Assembly (NCBI GenBank): GCA_964348725.1
Contig: CAYGDG010000005.1
Span: 1-62,770, forward strand
From: an uncultured Candidatus Saccharibacteria bacterium
Lineage (GTDB): Bacteria; Patescibacteriota; Minisyncoccia; Phycocordibacterales; UBA9973
Direction: 5' to 3'
DNA: 62,770 nt
Part shown: positions 1 to 62,770 of the stretch, one piece after another
Layout of the letters: each line of letters begins with the position of its first letter
Numbering within the stretch: position 1 is the first letter of the stretch
Program-made: the position numbers and the translations under genes
The notes under the pieces: model-generated
What the model was told of the DNA's origin: nothing
What the model saw: only the letters and a program-made list of their open reading frames with translations
Databases searched by the model: none

Positions 1-525
<525 letters not shown>

Positions 526-3673: not shown

Positions 3674-4303
3674 TTACTCCTCCTTCTTATGAAACACCGT
3701 GAAGTAGCGCTCAAAGAGCATACTGCCGGCAAGGGCGAGGAAGAGGAGCGCGGCGTAGATGAGCAGGAACTCAGTCAGATTGAGGGAAAATTGCCGAAGA
3801 GCGCCGAGAATGAAGATGAAGTACCAACTCACGATAGATACGCCGCCAGAGGCGAAAGCGATGCGGTGCAGGCTGTGGAGCTCCCCTTTTTTGTGCACGT
3901 GCGGCAAATTGAAGGATATTTTTGAAAGGCGCGGCGAGATGTATGCGTTCAGCAGGATGCCATTTGCAATGAGCACGCCGATGGCGATGACTTTTGAAAT
4001 AAATTTTGCCGAATCACTCAGCCGTGCCGCCTCCGGCAGATAGAGCATAAAGCCGGAGAGGATGAGCGCGCCAAGCGCTATCCAGATGACATGTGAAAGC
4101 GCACGGGCGATGCCGGCTTCATCTTCTGATATTTTATAATCGCGCAGGAAGCGGAAAAAAAGCACGTCAGTAACCGTAGCAGCGCCCACACCCACGGCGG
4201 CGGCAAGCATGTGCGCGATGACGATGACGCTCCTGTGCTCTATTAAAAATTGCATTACTGATTCCACTATATCCATTAAATCATACTTCCCTTTCCCGCG
4301 CAA
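3674..4303 (-). CDS. Multi-pass membrane protein of unknown function (start uncertain)
   Basis: About 5 hydrophobic helices; HMLAAAVGVGAATVTD motif. Confidence 0.75.
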   Translation of the reverse strand: MRGKGKYDLMDIVESVMQFLIEHRSVIVIAHMLAAAVGVGAATVTDVLFFRFLRDYKISEDEAGIARALSHVIWIALGALILSGFMLYLPEAARLSDSAKFISKVIAIGVLIANGILLNAYISPRLSKISFNLPHVHKKGELHSLHRIAFASGGVSIVSWYFIFILGALRQFSLNLTEFLLIYAALLFLALAGSMLFERYFTVFHKKEE

Positions 4304-8683: not shown

Positions 8684-9007
8684 TTAAAACTTGTATAATT
8701 TATTCCAAACTGAAACTGTCTGCTTTTTATCGCCAATAGAAAGAACCCCAAGCTGTCTTTGTAAATCTGCTTTTCTTAAAGTGGCAACTTTTGCCAATCT
8801 CACCCACGAATCAAGCAATAATCCCGATTGTTTCCAATTTTTAATTTTAGTATCTCCTTTGCCAGTCCGCTCAGCGCTTGTTATCGGCGCAAGCACAATA
8901 TCATCATCTCCAATATCCAGAACGACAAGAGCTGGGCGTTTTTTCTTATTCCCGTCTGTTTGATGAAAAGTAGCGAAAACAATATCGCCAAATTTATATT
9001 TGGTCAT
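8684..9007 (-). CDS. PemK/MazF family toxin
   Basis: YKFGDIV...F.QTDG.KKKRPALVV...DIVLAPITS; start refined to MTKYKF. Confidence 0.9.
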   Translation of the reverse strand: MTKYKFGDIVFATFHQTDGNKKKRPALVVLDIGDDDIVLAPITSAERTGKGDTKIKNWKQSGLLLDSWVRLAKVATLRKADLQRQLGVLSIGDKKQTVSVWNKLYKF

Positions 9008-9185
9008 AAATTTCGTCAGATTTACTGTAAGATTTAAAAAACTTATCTTTAGCGGCTCTTTTCCATAAATGTTCGTCATCTTCAACCATCTTTAAGTGCT
9101 TCAAAAGACTCTCGTACTGCAAGCGAGGGACGAGCATGAGGTCTTTTTCTTTTATTAGATTGTGGGGAATTGTTATCGTGGTCAT
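8994..9185 (-). CDS. Putative antitoxin paired with PemK
   Basis: 63 aa, overlaps the toxin start by 14 nt; TATAAT 6 nt upstream of ATG. Confidence 0.7.
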   Translation of the reverse strand: MTTITIPHNLIKEKDLMLVPRLQYESLLKHLKMVEDDEHLWKRAAKDKFFKSYSKSDEIYDQI

Positions 9186-30023: not shown

Positions 30024-31091
30024 TTATTTATTACCGCGGGCAAAGATCTTATCTTTCTCGAGGTCATTGATAAATTCCATGATGGCGACAGCACCCGGCA
30101 CGGCGAGGATGAGTCCCCATACGCCGGCCAGCTCCGCGCCTACCAGCACGGCCAGGATGACAACAAGCGGTGAGAGGCCCACCACGCGCTTCACGATAAG
30201 CGGATTCAAGAGATACACTTCAAATTGATGGATGATGACATACGCGCCGAAGACCATGAGCGAATCCGAGAGACCGCCAGAAAGATACGCAAAGGCCACT
30301 GCCGGCACCATAGCGATGACCACACCGTATGGCACTATTTCAAGCAGGCCGGTGATGATCGCGAGGAGCAATGCGTACTGGATGCCGAGGAGCGAAAGCG
30401 TAAGGTATGTAAGGATAGCGACGAGAAGGCCCACGAGCATCTGCCCTTTTATCCAAAGGGCGATCTTGCGGCGGGAACGCTCCCACAGGGATACGGCATA
30501 GTCCTCGTGCTTCTGTGGCAAAATAATGCGTAGGAAATTTTCGATGCCGCGCTCCTGGATGGAAAGGTAGAAAGAAATGATGACGATCATCATCACATTA
30601 AAGAGCGAGCCGAAAGCGGCGGACAGCGTCTGGAAGAATCCGCCGGAAAGGTTCGCGATGAATGCTTTGGAAGTGGCCAGGAGTTCTGGAATTGAAAATC
30701 CGTGGGCCAAGCTGTTTACGATATCTTTGGCACCGGAGAAGGCATCGCTCTGAAAATAATTCAGGAAGCCGGCATCCGGAAAATACGTGGAAATGGCAGC
30801 AGAGAAATTATAGACTTCCGTGATGAGAAGCGGCGCGAAGAGATAAAATAGTCCGGCCAGGACGGAGAGCGAGATGAAATACATCAGCACCACGGCCATC
30901 ACTCGACCAATACCTATTTTCTTCAGGCGAGTGACTGCTGATTCGATGAAGGAGGCAATAACGATAGAAGTCAAAATAACCAATACTAGATCACGCAATA
31001 CCCAGACGAGAAAAATTCCCAGACCGACGAGAAATGTCCGGAATATCGTGCCGGTCGTTATGGAAATGGAAGTTATGGACTTTTCAGGCAT
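30024..31091 (-). CDS. AI-2E family transporter
   Basis: Multi-TM; EIVPY.G, HQFE..LLNPLIV....GLSP, GLILAVP. Confidence 0.9.
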   Translation of the reverse strand: MPEKSITSISITTGTIFRTFLVGLGIFLVWVLRDLVLVILTSIVIASFIESAVTRLKKIGIGRVMAVVLMYFISLSVLAGLFYLFAPLLITEVYNFSAAISTYFPDAGFLNYFQSDAFSGAKDIVNSLAHGFSIPELLATSKAFIANLSGGFFQTLSAAFGSLFNVMMIVIISFYLSIQERGIENFLRIILPQKHEDYAVSLWERSRRKIALWIKGQMLVGLLVAILTYLTLSLLGIQYALLLAIITGLLEIVPYGVVIAMVPAVAFAYLSGGLSDSLMVFGAYVIIHQFEVYLLNPLIVKRVVGLSPLVVILAVLVGAELAGVWGLILAVPGAVAIMEFINDLEKDKIFARGNK

Positions 31092-31118
31092 ACCGAGAGT
31101 ATATCAATAAAAGCCTTT

Positions 31119-32390
31119 TTATTCCAGCTTTAAAATAGGCAAGAATTCTTCTTTTTTCTTAAATGGGCCGATCAGGGAAAGATTCAGCTTGCCGTCTTGA
31201 AAGATCTCTGCGGCGATTTTTTGTATATCTTTAGCTTTAATCTTGCGGATATTCTCGGCTTTCTTTTCCGGCGTCGTGATCTTCTCGCGCAGTACCGCCT
31301 GTCCCCCGTAAAAATTCGCCACATCGTCCGTAGCCTCCAGACCCATCTTCATATTGCCGATGATGAGTTCTTTCACTTTATTGAGTTCTTTTTCCGGCAC
31401 CGCTTCGTCAACGAGGCGTTTGCATTCTTTCAAAATTGCGGTGATGACTTCCTTTACGCGCTTATTATCAACGCCGGAAGATATCTGCAGGAATCCATGA
31501 TCAGTATAGGAATCCGGCGCGGAGCGCACGTAATAGCACACACCCATTTCTTCGCGCAGCTTATGGAAAAGTCTGGAGCTCATTCCAGCGCCGAGCACAG
31601 CTGCCAACACCGTAAGCGCGCCATTCCTTTTGTCATGCACATCATACGCGCGGAAACCGAGGACGAAATGCGTCTGATCCGTCTTTTTAAATTTAATAAG
31701 GGCCGCGGGGGCGGACTGCTTGTCGATGGTCTTTTTCTTGCCGGCTTTCTTGGCTTTCTTGGTCTTGGCAAAAGTTTTATTCACTTCGCGCATCACTTCC
31801 CCTGCGCTCACCGGGCCTGCCACCACCACAATCGTCGCTTCTGGAACATAGTGCGCTTTTTTGTAATCGATAAAATCCTTGCGCTCCATCTTTCGAATAT
31901 TCTCGCGCGGACCGGCAATGTTCCAACCGGCCGGCTGATCTCCGTAGAGTAATTCCATCATCAAATCCTGCACATGGCGCGGCGGCGTGTCTTCATACAT
32001 ATTTATTTCTTCGATGATGACGCCTTTTTCTTTGTGCATTTCAAGCTCCGGGAAAGTGGAATTTAAATAAATATCAGAGACGACATCAAATATCTTTTTG
32101 AAATGCTTCGCGTCTGATTTCGCGTAATAACCCGTGTATTCCTGCCCGGTAAAAGCATTGTATTGCGCGCCGAGGCCGTCCAGCTCGCCGGAAATATCCC
32201 CCGCCGTCGGGCGCTTTACGGTGCCTTTGAAGCACATATGCTCCAAGAAATGCGAGAGGCCATTTATCTTTTTCGTCTCATATTTCGAACCGGTTTCCAC
32301 CAGCACCAAGACGGTCGCCGTCGGATTGCCTTTCATCGGGATATGGATAACACGCAAACCATTCTTCAGTTTTTTCTGAGTAAATTGCAT
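31119..32390 (-). CDS. M16 family zinc peptidase
   Basis: GLSHFLEHMCFKGT (HXXEH); NAFTGQEYT; SSRLFHKLRE. Confidence 0.95.
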   Translation of the reverse strand: MQFTQKKLKNGLRVIHIPMKGNPTATVLVLVETGSKYETKKINGLSHFLEHMCFKGTVKRPTAGDISGELDGLGAQYNAFTGQEYTGYYAKSDAKHFKKIFDVVSDIYLNSTFPELEMHKEKGVIIEEINMYEDTPPRHVQDLMMELLYGDQPAGWNIAGPRENIRKMERKDFIDYKKAHYVPEATIVVVAGPVSAGEVMREVNKTFAKTKKAKKAGKKKTIDKQSAPAALIKFKKTDQTHFVLGFRAYDVHDKRNGALTVLAAVLGAGMSSRLFHKLREEMGVCYYVRSAPDSYTDHGFLQISSGVDNKRVKEVITAILKECKRLVDEAVPEKELNKVKELIIGNMKMGLEATDDVANFYGGQAVLREKITTPEKKAENIRKIKAKDIQKIAAEIFQDGKLNLSLIGPFKKKEEFLPILKLE

Positions 32391-61729: not shown

Positions 61730-62176
61730 TTAATTCATACTTGCCGCGCCGGTGGCATTTATAGTAACAGTCTTCGTAACAGAAGAAACGCTGACGACGA
61801 CCGTACCCGTCTTATTCGGCGCACCAGTCAGGCGATTGAAATACACATCGCTTCCGCCACCGGAAAGGGTGATGGTGGAAATAGTAGCCGGCGAAGCAAT
61901 TAAAATATTTTCATTGTTCGCATCCACGGCAGAATATACTGTGCCCTTAAAAATTACTACTTTGTCCGACTGAAAATGCACGCCGTATTCGGAAGAATTC
62001 ACGGAAGCCAAAGTCTGCGAGCGGGCTTTATCCAACGCCGACAGCACATCACTCGTGGCACTCTTCAACACCGCCCGCTGACGCATCGTAGAAAAAGAAG
62101 GCATAACGACGAGCGCGATAATGCCTATCACAGCAATGACGACGAGCATTTCTATTAAAGTGAACCCCTTTTGCAT
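61730..62176 (-). CDS. FimT/GspH-like minor pilin
   Basis: KG|FTLIEMLVVIAVIG prepilin N-methylation motif; ARSQTL. Confidence 0.9.
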   Translation of the reverse strand: MQKGFTLIEMLVVIAVIGIIALVVMPSFSTMRQRAVLKSATSDVLSALDKARSQTLASVNSSEYGVHFQSDKVVIFKGTVYSAVDANNENILIASPATISTITLSGGGSDVYFNRLTGAPNKTGTVVVSVSSVTKTVTINATGAASMN

Positions 62177-62218
62177 TGGTTATATTTTAGCACAAAAAAA
62201 GAACACCAGGCCCTTTAT

Positions 62219-62305
62219 TTGACTTCAACTGGCGTTTTGCTATAATTAAAGTACACAGTGGCTTCGGCCTCCGAGAAAGCCCCCGCAAGGGGGCTTTCGA
62301 TTTTT
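62219..62305 (+). ncRNA. Candidate ~55-nt small RNA with its own promoter and terminator
   Basis: TTGACT-16-TATAAT (extended TG), GGC-TTCG-GCC hairpin, 10-bp GAAAGCCCCC-GCAA-GGGGGCTTTC stem and T5; no ORF between promoter and terminator. Confidence 0.5.
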
Positions 62306-62687
62306 ATAGAAGATCTTTCAATTTCTTTCTCAAGATATCAAATTCCTCCTGCTTCACCATTCCTATTTTTCTCAATAATCTTTTCTTATCCAATACTTTT
62401 ATTTGGTCAAGCAGGGCATATCCTGAAACGGCTTCATGAACTATGAGCGATTGGAATTTGTCCATCCTTTTTTTAGTACTCAAAGGAACTGCCAGAAAAG
62501 TATCGCTGCTCAGTACGGAATACACCACTATCGGCCTTTCAAAATTATCGCCTCTGCCATCCTGCTCGCGGCCTATGTTCACGCCAAAAGCCGCCCACCA
62601 GATTTCTCTGTCGTGGCATAATTTCCTCGTATCATCAGCGTTAGTGATTTTTTTCTTTTCGTTCCATCTATCAAAATCCTTTTGCAT
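62304..62687 (-). CDS. PemK/MazF-like toxin
   Basis: KDFDRWNEKK, REIWW..FGVNIG.EQDG...FERP..V, VPLST, LDQIKVLDKKRL; start refined. Confidence 0.85.
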   Translation of the reverse strand: MQKDFDRWNEKKKITNADDTRKLCHDREIWWAAFGVNIGREQDGRGDNFERPIVVYSVLSSDTFLAVPLSTKKRMDKFQSLIVHEAVSGYALLDQIKVLDKKRLLRKIGMVKQEEFDILRKKLKDLL

Positions 62688-62770
62688 AAGCATCAGGACA
62701 TCGGAGCGTCTCGGTATTAGTATTTTATAACATTCAGGACACATGTCCAACACCGGAATACACCCCACCC

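Follow-up and report, generated by a model that had tools for sequence, protein, structure and literature searches.

A small-RNA gene converging on an N-terminally extended MazF/PemK toxin gene: a candidate RNA-antitoxin module in Patescibacteria

MazF/PemK toxins are the standard example of type II, and automated annotation assigns the whole family to that type; an RNA antidote has barely been described for the classic MazF/PemK family. ToxN, a protein with a Kid/MazF-like fold, is inhibited by the RNA ToxI, and the type III systems (ToxIN, AbiQ/antiQ, CptIN and TenpIN) pair an endoribonuclease of this fold with a small structured RNA and have no protein antitoxin. In type I systems such as txpA/RatA, bsrG/SR4 and yonT/SR6 of Bacillus subtilis and par (fst, RNA I/RNA II) of plasmid pAD1, the RNA is convergent with the toxin gene and overlaps its 3' end. 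The closest documented relative of the locus described here is found on plasmid pVir of Campylobacter jejuni 81-176, where a homologue of PemK lies beside the small RNA (sRNA) CJpv3, a 77-nt transcript of the - strand (31119..31043) detected by differential RNA sequencing (dRNA-seq) and Northern blot (Dugar 2013, PMC3656092, Table S12). Here we analyse the right-hand end of a 62,770-nt contig (the whole of which is called the window below) from an uncultured Candidatus Saccharibacteria bacterium, GenBank CAYGDG010000005.1, where a PemK toxin gene is met head-on by the predicted gene of an sRNA. Together the two parts span about 0.55 kb, and we propose from comparative sequence analysis that they probably form a self-contained, two-gene toxin-antitoxin-like module in which the RNA is the antitoxin.

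The predicted sRNA gene (Table 1) has a promoter that agrees with the sigma-70 consensus at 11/12 positions and carries the TG of an extended -10 box, making it the top promoter-like site between 55000 and 62770; counting both strands, the entire 0.96-Mb genome has only 15 sites that reach 11/12 and carry the TG. The 5' end of the RNA was placed 7 nt past the -10 box and the 3' end at the U tract; promoter, transcription start and 3' end are predictions, and the promoter scores are crude. The terminator hairpin ranked first in a terminator scan, and folding of the predicted 53-nt RNA (-25.2 kcal/mol, z = -3.2) returned the same two hairpins, with GA...GA flanking the terminator stem so that tandem G.A pairs could form. 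At 62301-62305 a T run extends into TAA, the stop codon of the toxin (62304-62306, - strand). On its other side, the + strand unit is directed away from a pilin gene and so would transcribe nothing but itself. A first-pass annotation of the window had described the promoter, the UUCG hairpin, the GCAA-capped 10-bp terminator and the U tract on the stop codon, and all of them lie base for base where it placed them; the short RNA of about 55 nt that it postulated agrees with our 53-mer, the promoter and hairpins of which are conserved.

Table 1. Coordinates of the predicted toxin-sRNA module and of other features in the window
Feature	Position	Strand	Remarks
sRNA promoter	62219..62246	+	-35 TTGACT (62219-62224), 16-nt spacer, extended -10 TGcTATAAT (62238-62246)
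Predicted sRNA, variant A, ~53 nt	about 62253..62305	+	5' tail ACACAGU, hairpin 1, linker, terminator hairpin, GAUUUUU tail
Hairpin 1, GGC-UUCG-GCC	62260..62269	+	Stem changes compensatory in homologues
Single-stranded linker UCCGA, within CUCCGAG motif	62270..62274	+	Near-invariant in sRNA alignment A6
Terminator hairpin, GAAAGCCCCC-GCAA-GGGGGCUUUC, 10 bp	62275..62298	+	Followed by G-A and U tract, 62299-62305
Toxin, N-terminally extended MazF/PemK, 127 aa	62304..62687	-	Alternative start at 62693 would give 129 aa
Toxin promoter-like site TGGACA-16-TAAAAT (62749..62722) and ~30-nt 5' untranslated region (UTR)	62688..62749	-	UTR without Shine-Dalgarno sequence
Pilin gene	61730-62176	-	Left of the sRNA unit; own promoter
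PemK without N-terminal extension	8684-9010	-	PF02452 at 3.7e-12
63-aa open reading frame (ORF), overlapping and upstream of PemK 8684-9010	8994-9185	-	Follows a TATAAT box; matches nothing in Pfam

When 60 relatives were searched at the DNA level, six genomes of the same genus proved to contain the whole region spanning -10 box and U tract. In their alignment the -35 and -10 boxes, both hairpins and the linker line up, the spacing of TTGAC(T/A) and TAnnnT is kept, and the hairpins carry compensatory changes (GCC-GAAA-GGC, GGCC-AUUA-GGCC, GCUCCC/GGGAGC). A covariance model built on these seven sequences (the window and the six same-genus genomes) scores the window sRNA at 77 bits and was searched in 401 genomes of the order; the resulting tally of 354/401 genomes is inflated by generic terminators at about 20-35 bits, and the hits relied on here are those of at least 43 bits or at the expected position. 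Among 35 full-length homologues 96.9% of cells are paired and double-sided changes occur in 9/13 pairs, values that no slid structure and none of 500 column shuffles (0/500) came near. Compensatory changes affect 8/10 pairs of the terminator hairpin, and hairpin 1 has been swapped to GCC-GAAA-GGC in 7/35 homologues. As promoter, both hairpins and position are kept in more than 100 other loci, the arrangement is far beyond chance. A reading of the sRNA as a peptide gene (+ strand ORF, 62258-62446) was rejected, its frame varying among homologues and the hairpin changes being compensatory.

Searches against Rfam 15 gave no relevant match at E <= 10 for the window region, and none at E <= 1 in six variant-A loci; twelve variant-B loci together with pVir were negative at E <= 0.1 (both variants are defined below). 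Only sub-threshold chance matches were returned (rnk leader, Phe leader), and the sRNA therefore belongs to no known RNA family. The families covered reportedly include the pemK motif of Weinberg et al. 2017; the main text of that paper contains no discussion of it. The PADLOC defence models gave no match.

The sRNA is associated with a single toxin subfamily. Each of the six same-genus loci has a PemK gene beginning M-x-KDFDxWN that converges on the sRNA, and the flanks are all different (secreted repeat proteins, MazG-like, PilO-like, DNA polymerase III alpha, a tRNA-modification enzyme). By tblastn, the toxin was found in 32 of the 36 oriented sRNA loci, encoded on the opposite strand and converging on the sRNA terminator, where it ends, with a constant distance and in flanks that are unrelated. 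Approached from the toxin side, a peptide-pattern search of species-representative genomes found at least 567 relatives, the best 80 of which were used for counts of the layout. Nearly all of these 80 are from Patescibacteria (Paceibacteria/Parcubacteria lineages), and the remainder come from single metagenome-assembled genomes (MAGs) labelled Bacteroidia, Rickettsiales, Nanoarchaeota, Sulfuricurvum and Hyphomicrobiaceae, labels that may be binning errors. A convergent promoter downstream of the toxin (TTGnnn-15..19-TAnnnT) with hairpin 1 beginning 8-15 nt later was detected by simple pattern in 70/80 loci, and the covariance model, which is deliberately narrow, matches exactly at the expected place in 28/80. 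The first-pass annotation had named co-occurrence of its motif with KDFDxWN-type PemK genes as a check, and in these counts sRNA and toxin do occur together. Its proposal of a candidate RNA-antitoxin module with convergent layout likewise gains support, in that the RNA and the PemK subfamily move as a pair through unrelated contexts and the RNA covaries. The other possibility it raised, a detached leader of such a module, is rejected because the RNA owns a conserved promoter on the opposite strand.

Two RNA architectures were distinguished. Variant A, the type in the window, consists of hairpin 1, a CCGAG linker and the terminator, in about 52 nt. Variant B, the majority, is about 85 nt long and reads ACAAGU, hairpin 1, UCG, hairpin 2, an A-rich stretch and hairpin 3; its hairpin 1 is GCC-UUCG-GGC in many loci, hairpin 2 is short and GC-rich with a GNRA loop, and hairpin 3 has an 8-bp stem within the last toxin codons. 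An A tract precedes this stem and a U tract follows it where the sequence reaches that far, from which hairpin 3 is probably a bidirectional terminator of both transcripts. Promoters of sRNAs match the consensus better than those of the toxins (9.65 vs 8.1 of 12, p = 3e-4, on crude scores). Second sRNA-like copies occur at two loci, in each case upstream of the main sRNA gene by about 80 nt (L029, 1425-1473; L031, 1406-1468), and a third locus has an extra copy beyond the toxin (L117, 1039-1101). At a further locus, in a Patescibacteria MAG, a group I intron (RF00028, 72 bits; L105, 1786-2081, - strand) lies about 200 nt from the toxin-sRNA module.

Judged from profile matches and a predicted structure, the toxin is a genuine MazF/PemK endoribonuclease, not a ToxN. 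Its ORF matches PF02452 (PemK_toxin) with a score of 47.2 bits and E = 2.8e-12, above the curated cut-off of 23.1 bits, and, weakly, the NCBIfam MazF model. The AlphaFold model (predicted local distance difference test, pLDDT, 80) places a MazF barrel behind a lower-confidence helix formed by residues 3-19, which bears the motif KDFDxWNxxKK. Foldseek returned MazF-mt1 and the E. coli, S. aureus and B. subtilis MazF proteins as best neighbours in the PDB, and not ToxN, at probability 1.00 and template-modelling (TM) scores of about 0.65-0.8; the predicted fold is the SH3-like MazF/Kid barrel. Across 30 toxin homologues R53, P54 and P70 are invariant and L71 near-invariant; these residues frame ERP and PLST motifs that we tentatively take, by eye, as counterparts of the catalytic residues R29 and T52 in E. 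coli MazF (S72-T73 standing at the T52 position).

In most homologous loci an extended, TGnTAAAAT-like -10 box lies 5-8 nt before the toxin start codon, and the toxin mRNA is therefore predicted to be monocistronic and leaderless in most loci; the toxin of the window departs from this pattern with its UTR of ~30 nt. Two local peculiarities of this region were noted. An inverted repeat, GGACA-ca-TGTCC (62737-62748), lies over the -35 box of the toxin promoter and could be an operator; it is absent from the other loci inspected. The unusually long 5' UTR also reads ACCGAGACGCUCCGAU at 62700-62715 (- strand), which resembles the sRNA linker CUCCGAGA in the same sense and may be the remnant of an sRNA copy or a common recognition motif; ACCGAGACGCUCCGAU was seen at this locus only.

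The same 0.96-Mb genome holds four such N-extended modules. Three further toxin paralogues were located by tblastn, all on the + strand (C4:8003-8383, C3:81060-81446 and C8:12908-13315); immediately downstream of each toxin, the - strand holds a separate convergent promoter and two-hairpin RNA. The sRNAs of contigs C4 and C3 are of variant A and that of C8 is of variant B. In all three the stem of hairpin 1 is unlike that of the window; hairpin 1 reads GUUCC-CUUUGC-GGAAC in C4 and GGAC-GUAA-GUCC in C3, where the terminator stems differ as well; the CCGAG linker is common to the window, C4 and C3 sRNAs despite these unlike stems. The genome also encodes RNase III and one ordinary PemK with a protein partner. 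This last pair (8684-9185), which has no convergent sRNA at its locus, is type II-looking and provides an internal contrast to the sRNA-linked toxins.

Protein antitoxins were sought around and beyond the module. The window stops at 62770 because the contig ends there, and its last 83 nt, upstream of the toxin, hold the toxin's promoter-like site and no separate ORF, in line with the first-pass annotation, which saw no antitoxin ORF there. A toxin identical to that of the window is encoded on a public contig of 172,890 nt (L040), which extends past the window end, allowing the search for a cognate protein antitoxin to be carried further. Positions 1 to 8390 of L040 carry, in succession, pilB, pilC, a 197-aa gene that belongs to no family, the module and four pilin-like genes, and the toxin-sRNA module is thus inserted within a type IV pilus operon. 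The 197-aa gene lies 207 nt upstream of the toxin and is an unrelated gene; it is followed by an intrinsic terminator (GAACCC...GGGGGTTC and a T run, about 3815-3850), a spacer of about 130 nt and the toxin promoter. A cognate antitoxin ORF just past the window end, which the first-pass annotation had named as refuting its proposal, is not present there. No ORF of at least 35 aa within 550 nt upstream of the toxin is common to any two of the 29 loci with a placeable start, and the MazE domain (PF04014) has no match over the cut-off in the genome. On these comparisons the N-extended toxin is without a protein antitoxin, and the sRNA is apparently the only element that always accompanies it.

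Homologues of the toxin at 35-37% identity occur on plasmids of Campylobacter, Helicobacter and Nitratiruptor. The pVir protein (old tags pVir0047/0048, 30634-31038) is 36.5% identical over 88% of the query, carries the N-terminal motif FDEWNxxKK and has no annotated protein antitoxin; on the opposite strand, TTGATT-17-TGaTATAAT is followed by a hairpin that abuts its stop codon. The expressed RNA CJpv3 ends 5 nt from this stop codon, and its coordinates are exactly those of the predicted convergent unit. Plasmids of Nitratiruptor and Helicobacter suis show the same layout with unrelated sequences. As the covariance model gave no real match on pVir, the Campylobacter RNA is analogous in layout and not detectably homologous. 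Published work on pVir has validated CjrA, an RNA antitoxin described as antisense and type I (PMC10470494, PMC7826846). The CJpv3 region is 92-93% conserved on toxin-less Campylobacter plasmids of 3.8-5.2 kb (NC_004997.1, NZ_CP084081.1 and others), and cjrA matches without a toxin have been reported in the literature; taken together, these would fit CjrA and CJpv3 being one RNA. Shen et al. 2016 (Mol Microbiol 101:909) reportedly describe the cjrA RNA antitoxin, which may be CJpv3. The small toxin-less plasmids with the CJpv3 region may themselves be antitoxin-only (anti-addiction) elements.

Set beside the described systems, the module fits none of them completely. It shares with the CJpv3/PemK pair a homologous toxin and its N-terminal motif, a convergent strong promoter and a hairpin-rich RNA at the stop codon, but the Campylobacter RNA has neither sequence nor covariance-model similarity to ours, belongs to another phylum and is plasmid-borne, whereas the present module is chromosomal. 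Convergence and an RNA that stops at or within the toxin gene's 3' end recall the type I pairs named above, and likeness to type I extends to a stronger antitoxin promoter, an available RNase III and, in variant B, a common bidirectional terminator like that of par of pAD1. Type I toxins, however, are membrane peptides of <60 aa, whereas the present toxin is predicted to be a 127-aa soluble MazF ribonuclease; a small hydrophobic toxin is typical of type I and not universal, SymE and RalR being exceptions. Unlike the 3'-overlapping type I systems, the module also has minimal overlap with the toxin ORF (2-3 nt), its non-overlapping RNA part is the best conserved, and its loops are tetraloops, not U-turn loops. 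With type III it has in common a Kid/MazF-like-fold endoribonuclease, a small structured RNA expected in excess and no protein antitoxin; type III RNAs, in contrast, are tandem repeats, located upstream, co-directional and processed by the toxin, whereas the present RNA is single, downstream and convergent with its own promoter and terminator, and no tandem repeats that could form a type III array were found in L040 3700-4700. The parallel with ToxN-type toxins drawn by the first-pass annotation accordingly stands as an analogy and fails in its particulars, in repeats, in RNA position and in the toxin itself, which is a genuine MazF. Toxin family, fold and catalytic-looking Arg and Ser/Thr are those of type II MazEF/PemIK (Kis-Kid), but there is no co-transcribed protein antitoxin, an N-terminal helix is added, and the toxin is monocistronic and usually leaderless. 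The module would thus act like an RNA-antitoxin system that lacks the defining features of types II and III and resembles type I in geometry only.

That the sRNA is the toxin's antidote is the economical reading and a likely one, because it is the sole invariant partner of a potentially lethal ribonuclease, because it would be made from the stronger promoter, and because an RNA antitoxin has been validated on a plasmid that carries a homologous unit. For how it would neutralise the toxin we favour, tentatively, an antisense interaction at the 3' end of the toxin mRNA, as in type I systems, which is the most likely single mechanism and does not exclude direct binding of the toxin. The toxin gene would use its own promoter and give a monocistronic mRNA, leaderless in most relatives; the ~53-nt RNA would be made from its stronger convergent promoter and end at the hairpin next to, or overlapping, the stop codon of the toxin. 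The 3' end of the toxin mRNA is complementary to the sRNA, which could then pair with it at the common terminator hairpin and, where the toxin transcript reads through, over the whole sRNA region. The duplex would be cut by RNase III, removing the protective 3' hairpin and lowering toxin synthesis as in 3'-overlapping type I systems, and the conserved, non-overlapping 5' domain (5' tail, hairpin 1 and CCGAG linker) may additionally or instead bind the toxin protein. Antisense action is favoured because the convergent, stop-codon-abutting geometry is kept across phyla and the sequence is not, because variant B has a common bidirectional terminator, because the stems have diversified among paralogues of one genome, and because that genome has an RNase III gene.

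Several observations count against this reading. The region that would pair with properly terminated toxin mRNA does not include the best-conserved part of the sRNA (5' tail, hairpin 1, linker), and antisense action alone leaves the conservation of this 5' domain unexplained, since complementarity in cis requires no sequence conservation. The sRNA loops are UUCG/GNRA tetraloops, poor starts for loop-loop pairing. In the window the sRNA overlaps the toxin ORF by merely 2-3 nt, and antisense action would therefore need toxin-strand read-through of the hairpin (followed by UUUCUC). Predicted pairing of sRNAs to the toxin 5' end was no better for cognate than for non-cognate pairs (p = 0.11), in a crude comparison that ignores intramolecular structure. 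Four of the oriented sRNA loci have no clear adjacent toxin, three being apparent orphans (L015, L016, L037) and one having a doubtful match (L020). Finally, that CjrA is CJpv3, and that its toxin is the PemK homologue, is an assumption made from position.

Some of these observations would be accounted for if the folded sRNA instead bound the MazF dimer and blocked its RNA-binding groove, as a pseudo-substrate or through the basic N-terminal helix, in the manner of type III, the convergent position being merely inherited gene order with an economical common terminator. We regard this as possible, though not probable. It would explain why the 5' domain (ACAAGU/ACACAGU, hairpin 1, UCG/CCGAG) has been kept while toxins diverged to about 40% identity, why in variant B this domain lies past the toxin's terminator, and why three paralogous sRNAs of one genome have the CCGAG linker in common on unlike stems. 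Tandem second sRNAs (L029, L031), which would not be antisense to the toxin mRNA, the occurrence of orphan sRNAs and tetraloops unsuited for kissing interactions agree with it, as does the restriction of the N-terminal helix to the sRNA-linked subfamily, the PemK with a protein partner in the window having none. Yet tandem repeats and signs of processing sites are absent, and the RNA forms one unit that has a promoter and a terminator of its own. What is conserved across phyla is geometry, not sequence, which points to complementarity over a common protein-binding motif; the RNA antitoxin of pVir has been described as antisense and type I (PMC10470494, PMC7826846); and a common binding motif would allow cross-neutralisation among the four modules in one cell. 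Were direct binding nevertheless to operate, the module could represent a large toxin-antitoxin kind outside the present classification, in which MazF is checked by a single-copy two-hairpin RNA without MazE, repeats or processing, a proposal we consider doubtful. In such a system the N-terminal helix might be the RNA-docking element, and the kind might be common in the candidate phyla radiation (CPR)/Patescibacteria and reach Campylobacterota plasmids; we hold this, too, to be possible, though not probable.

Two further explanations leave the sRNA without an antidote role. It might be linked to the toxin as a two-way insulator or terminator, as a toxin cofactor or guide, or as a trans-acting regulator that rides as cargo with it on one mobile unit, which we judge unlikely. 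Co-occurrence by itself does not say whether the interaction is positive or negative, the variant B hairpin would terminate both strands, and the module lies inside a type IV pilus operon, where insulation from neighbours would matter; a terminator, however, requires neither a near-consensus promoter nor a 5' hairpin or conserved linker, and transcription would halt before the toxin ORF, and therefore the product, not the act of transcription, would matter. An uninhibited MazF with intact catalytic motifs would moreover be hard to maintain, four copies in 0.96 Mb especially, and the stronger promoter of the RNA suits an antidote in excess. Least likely, in our judgement, is a protein antitoxin encoded elsewhere (by a small unannotated ORF, the 197-aa gene or a MazE-like protein acting in trans), the RNA being incidental. 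The frame upstream of the toxin ATG is open up to the contig end, the 197-aa protein just upstream in L040 has no assigned function, and the 63-aa partner of the canonical PemK, which matches nothing in Pfam, implies that unrecognised antitoxins exist. Against this stand the intrinsic terminator between the 197-aa gene and the toxin, the want of any upstream ORF common among the 29 loci, flanking genes that differ wholly between loci, a genome in which the MazE domain has no match over the cut-off, and the sRNA as sole constant companion of the toxin.

In the pilin gene to the left of the module, only 8 nt separate the ATG from an extended -10 box, TGcTAAAAT (62177-62192, - strand), and there is no Shine-Dalgarno sequence; this gene, too, looks leaderless or nearly so. 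Its promoter and the sRNA promoter stand back-to-back.

We know of almost no characterised regulatory RNAs in CPR bacteria. If the N-extended MazF/PemK subfamily is indeed under the control of an sRNA and not of MazE, many 'orphan' MazF genes, with at least 567 relatives of the toxin described here, would not be orphans, and CPR bacteria would possess an abundant, unannotated small-RNA family. A single toxin family would then cross the boundary between types I, II and III.

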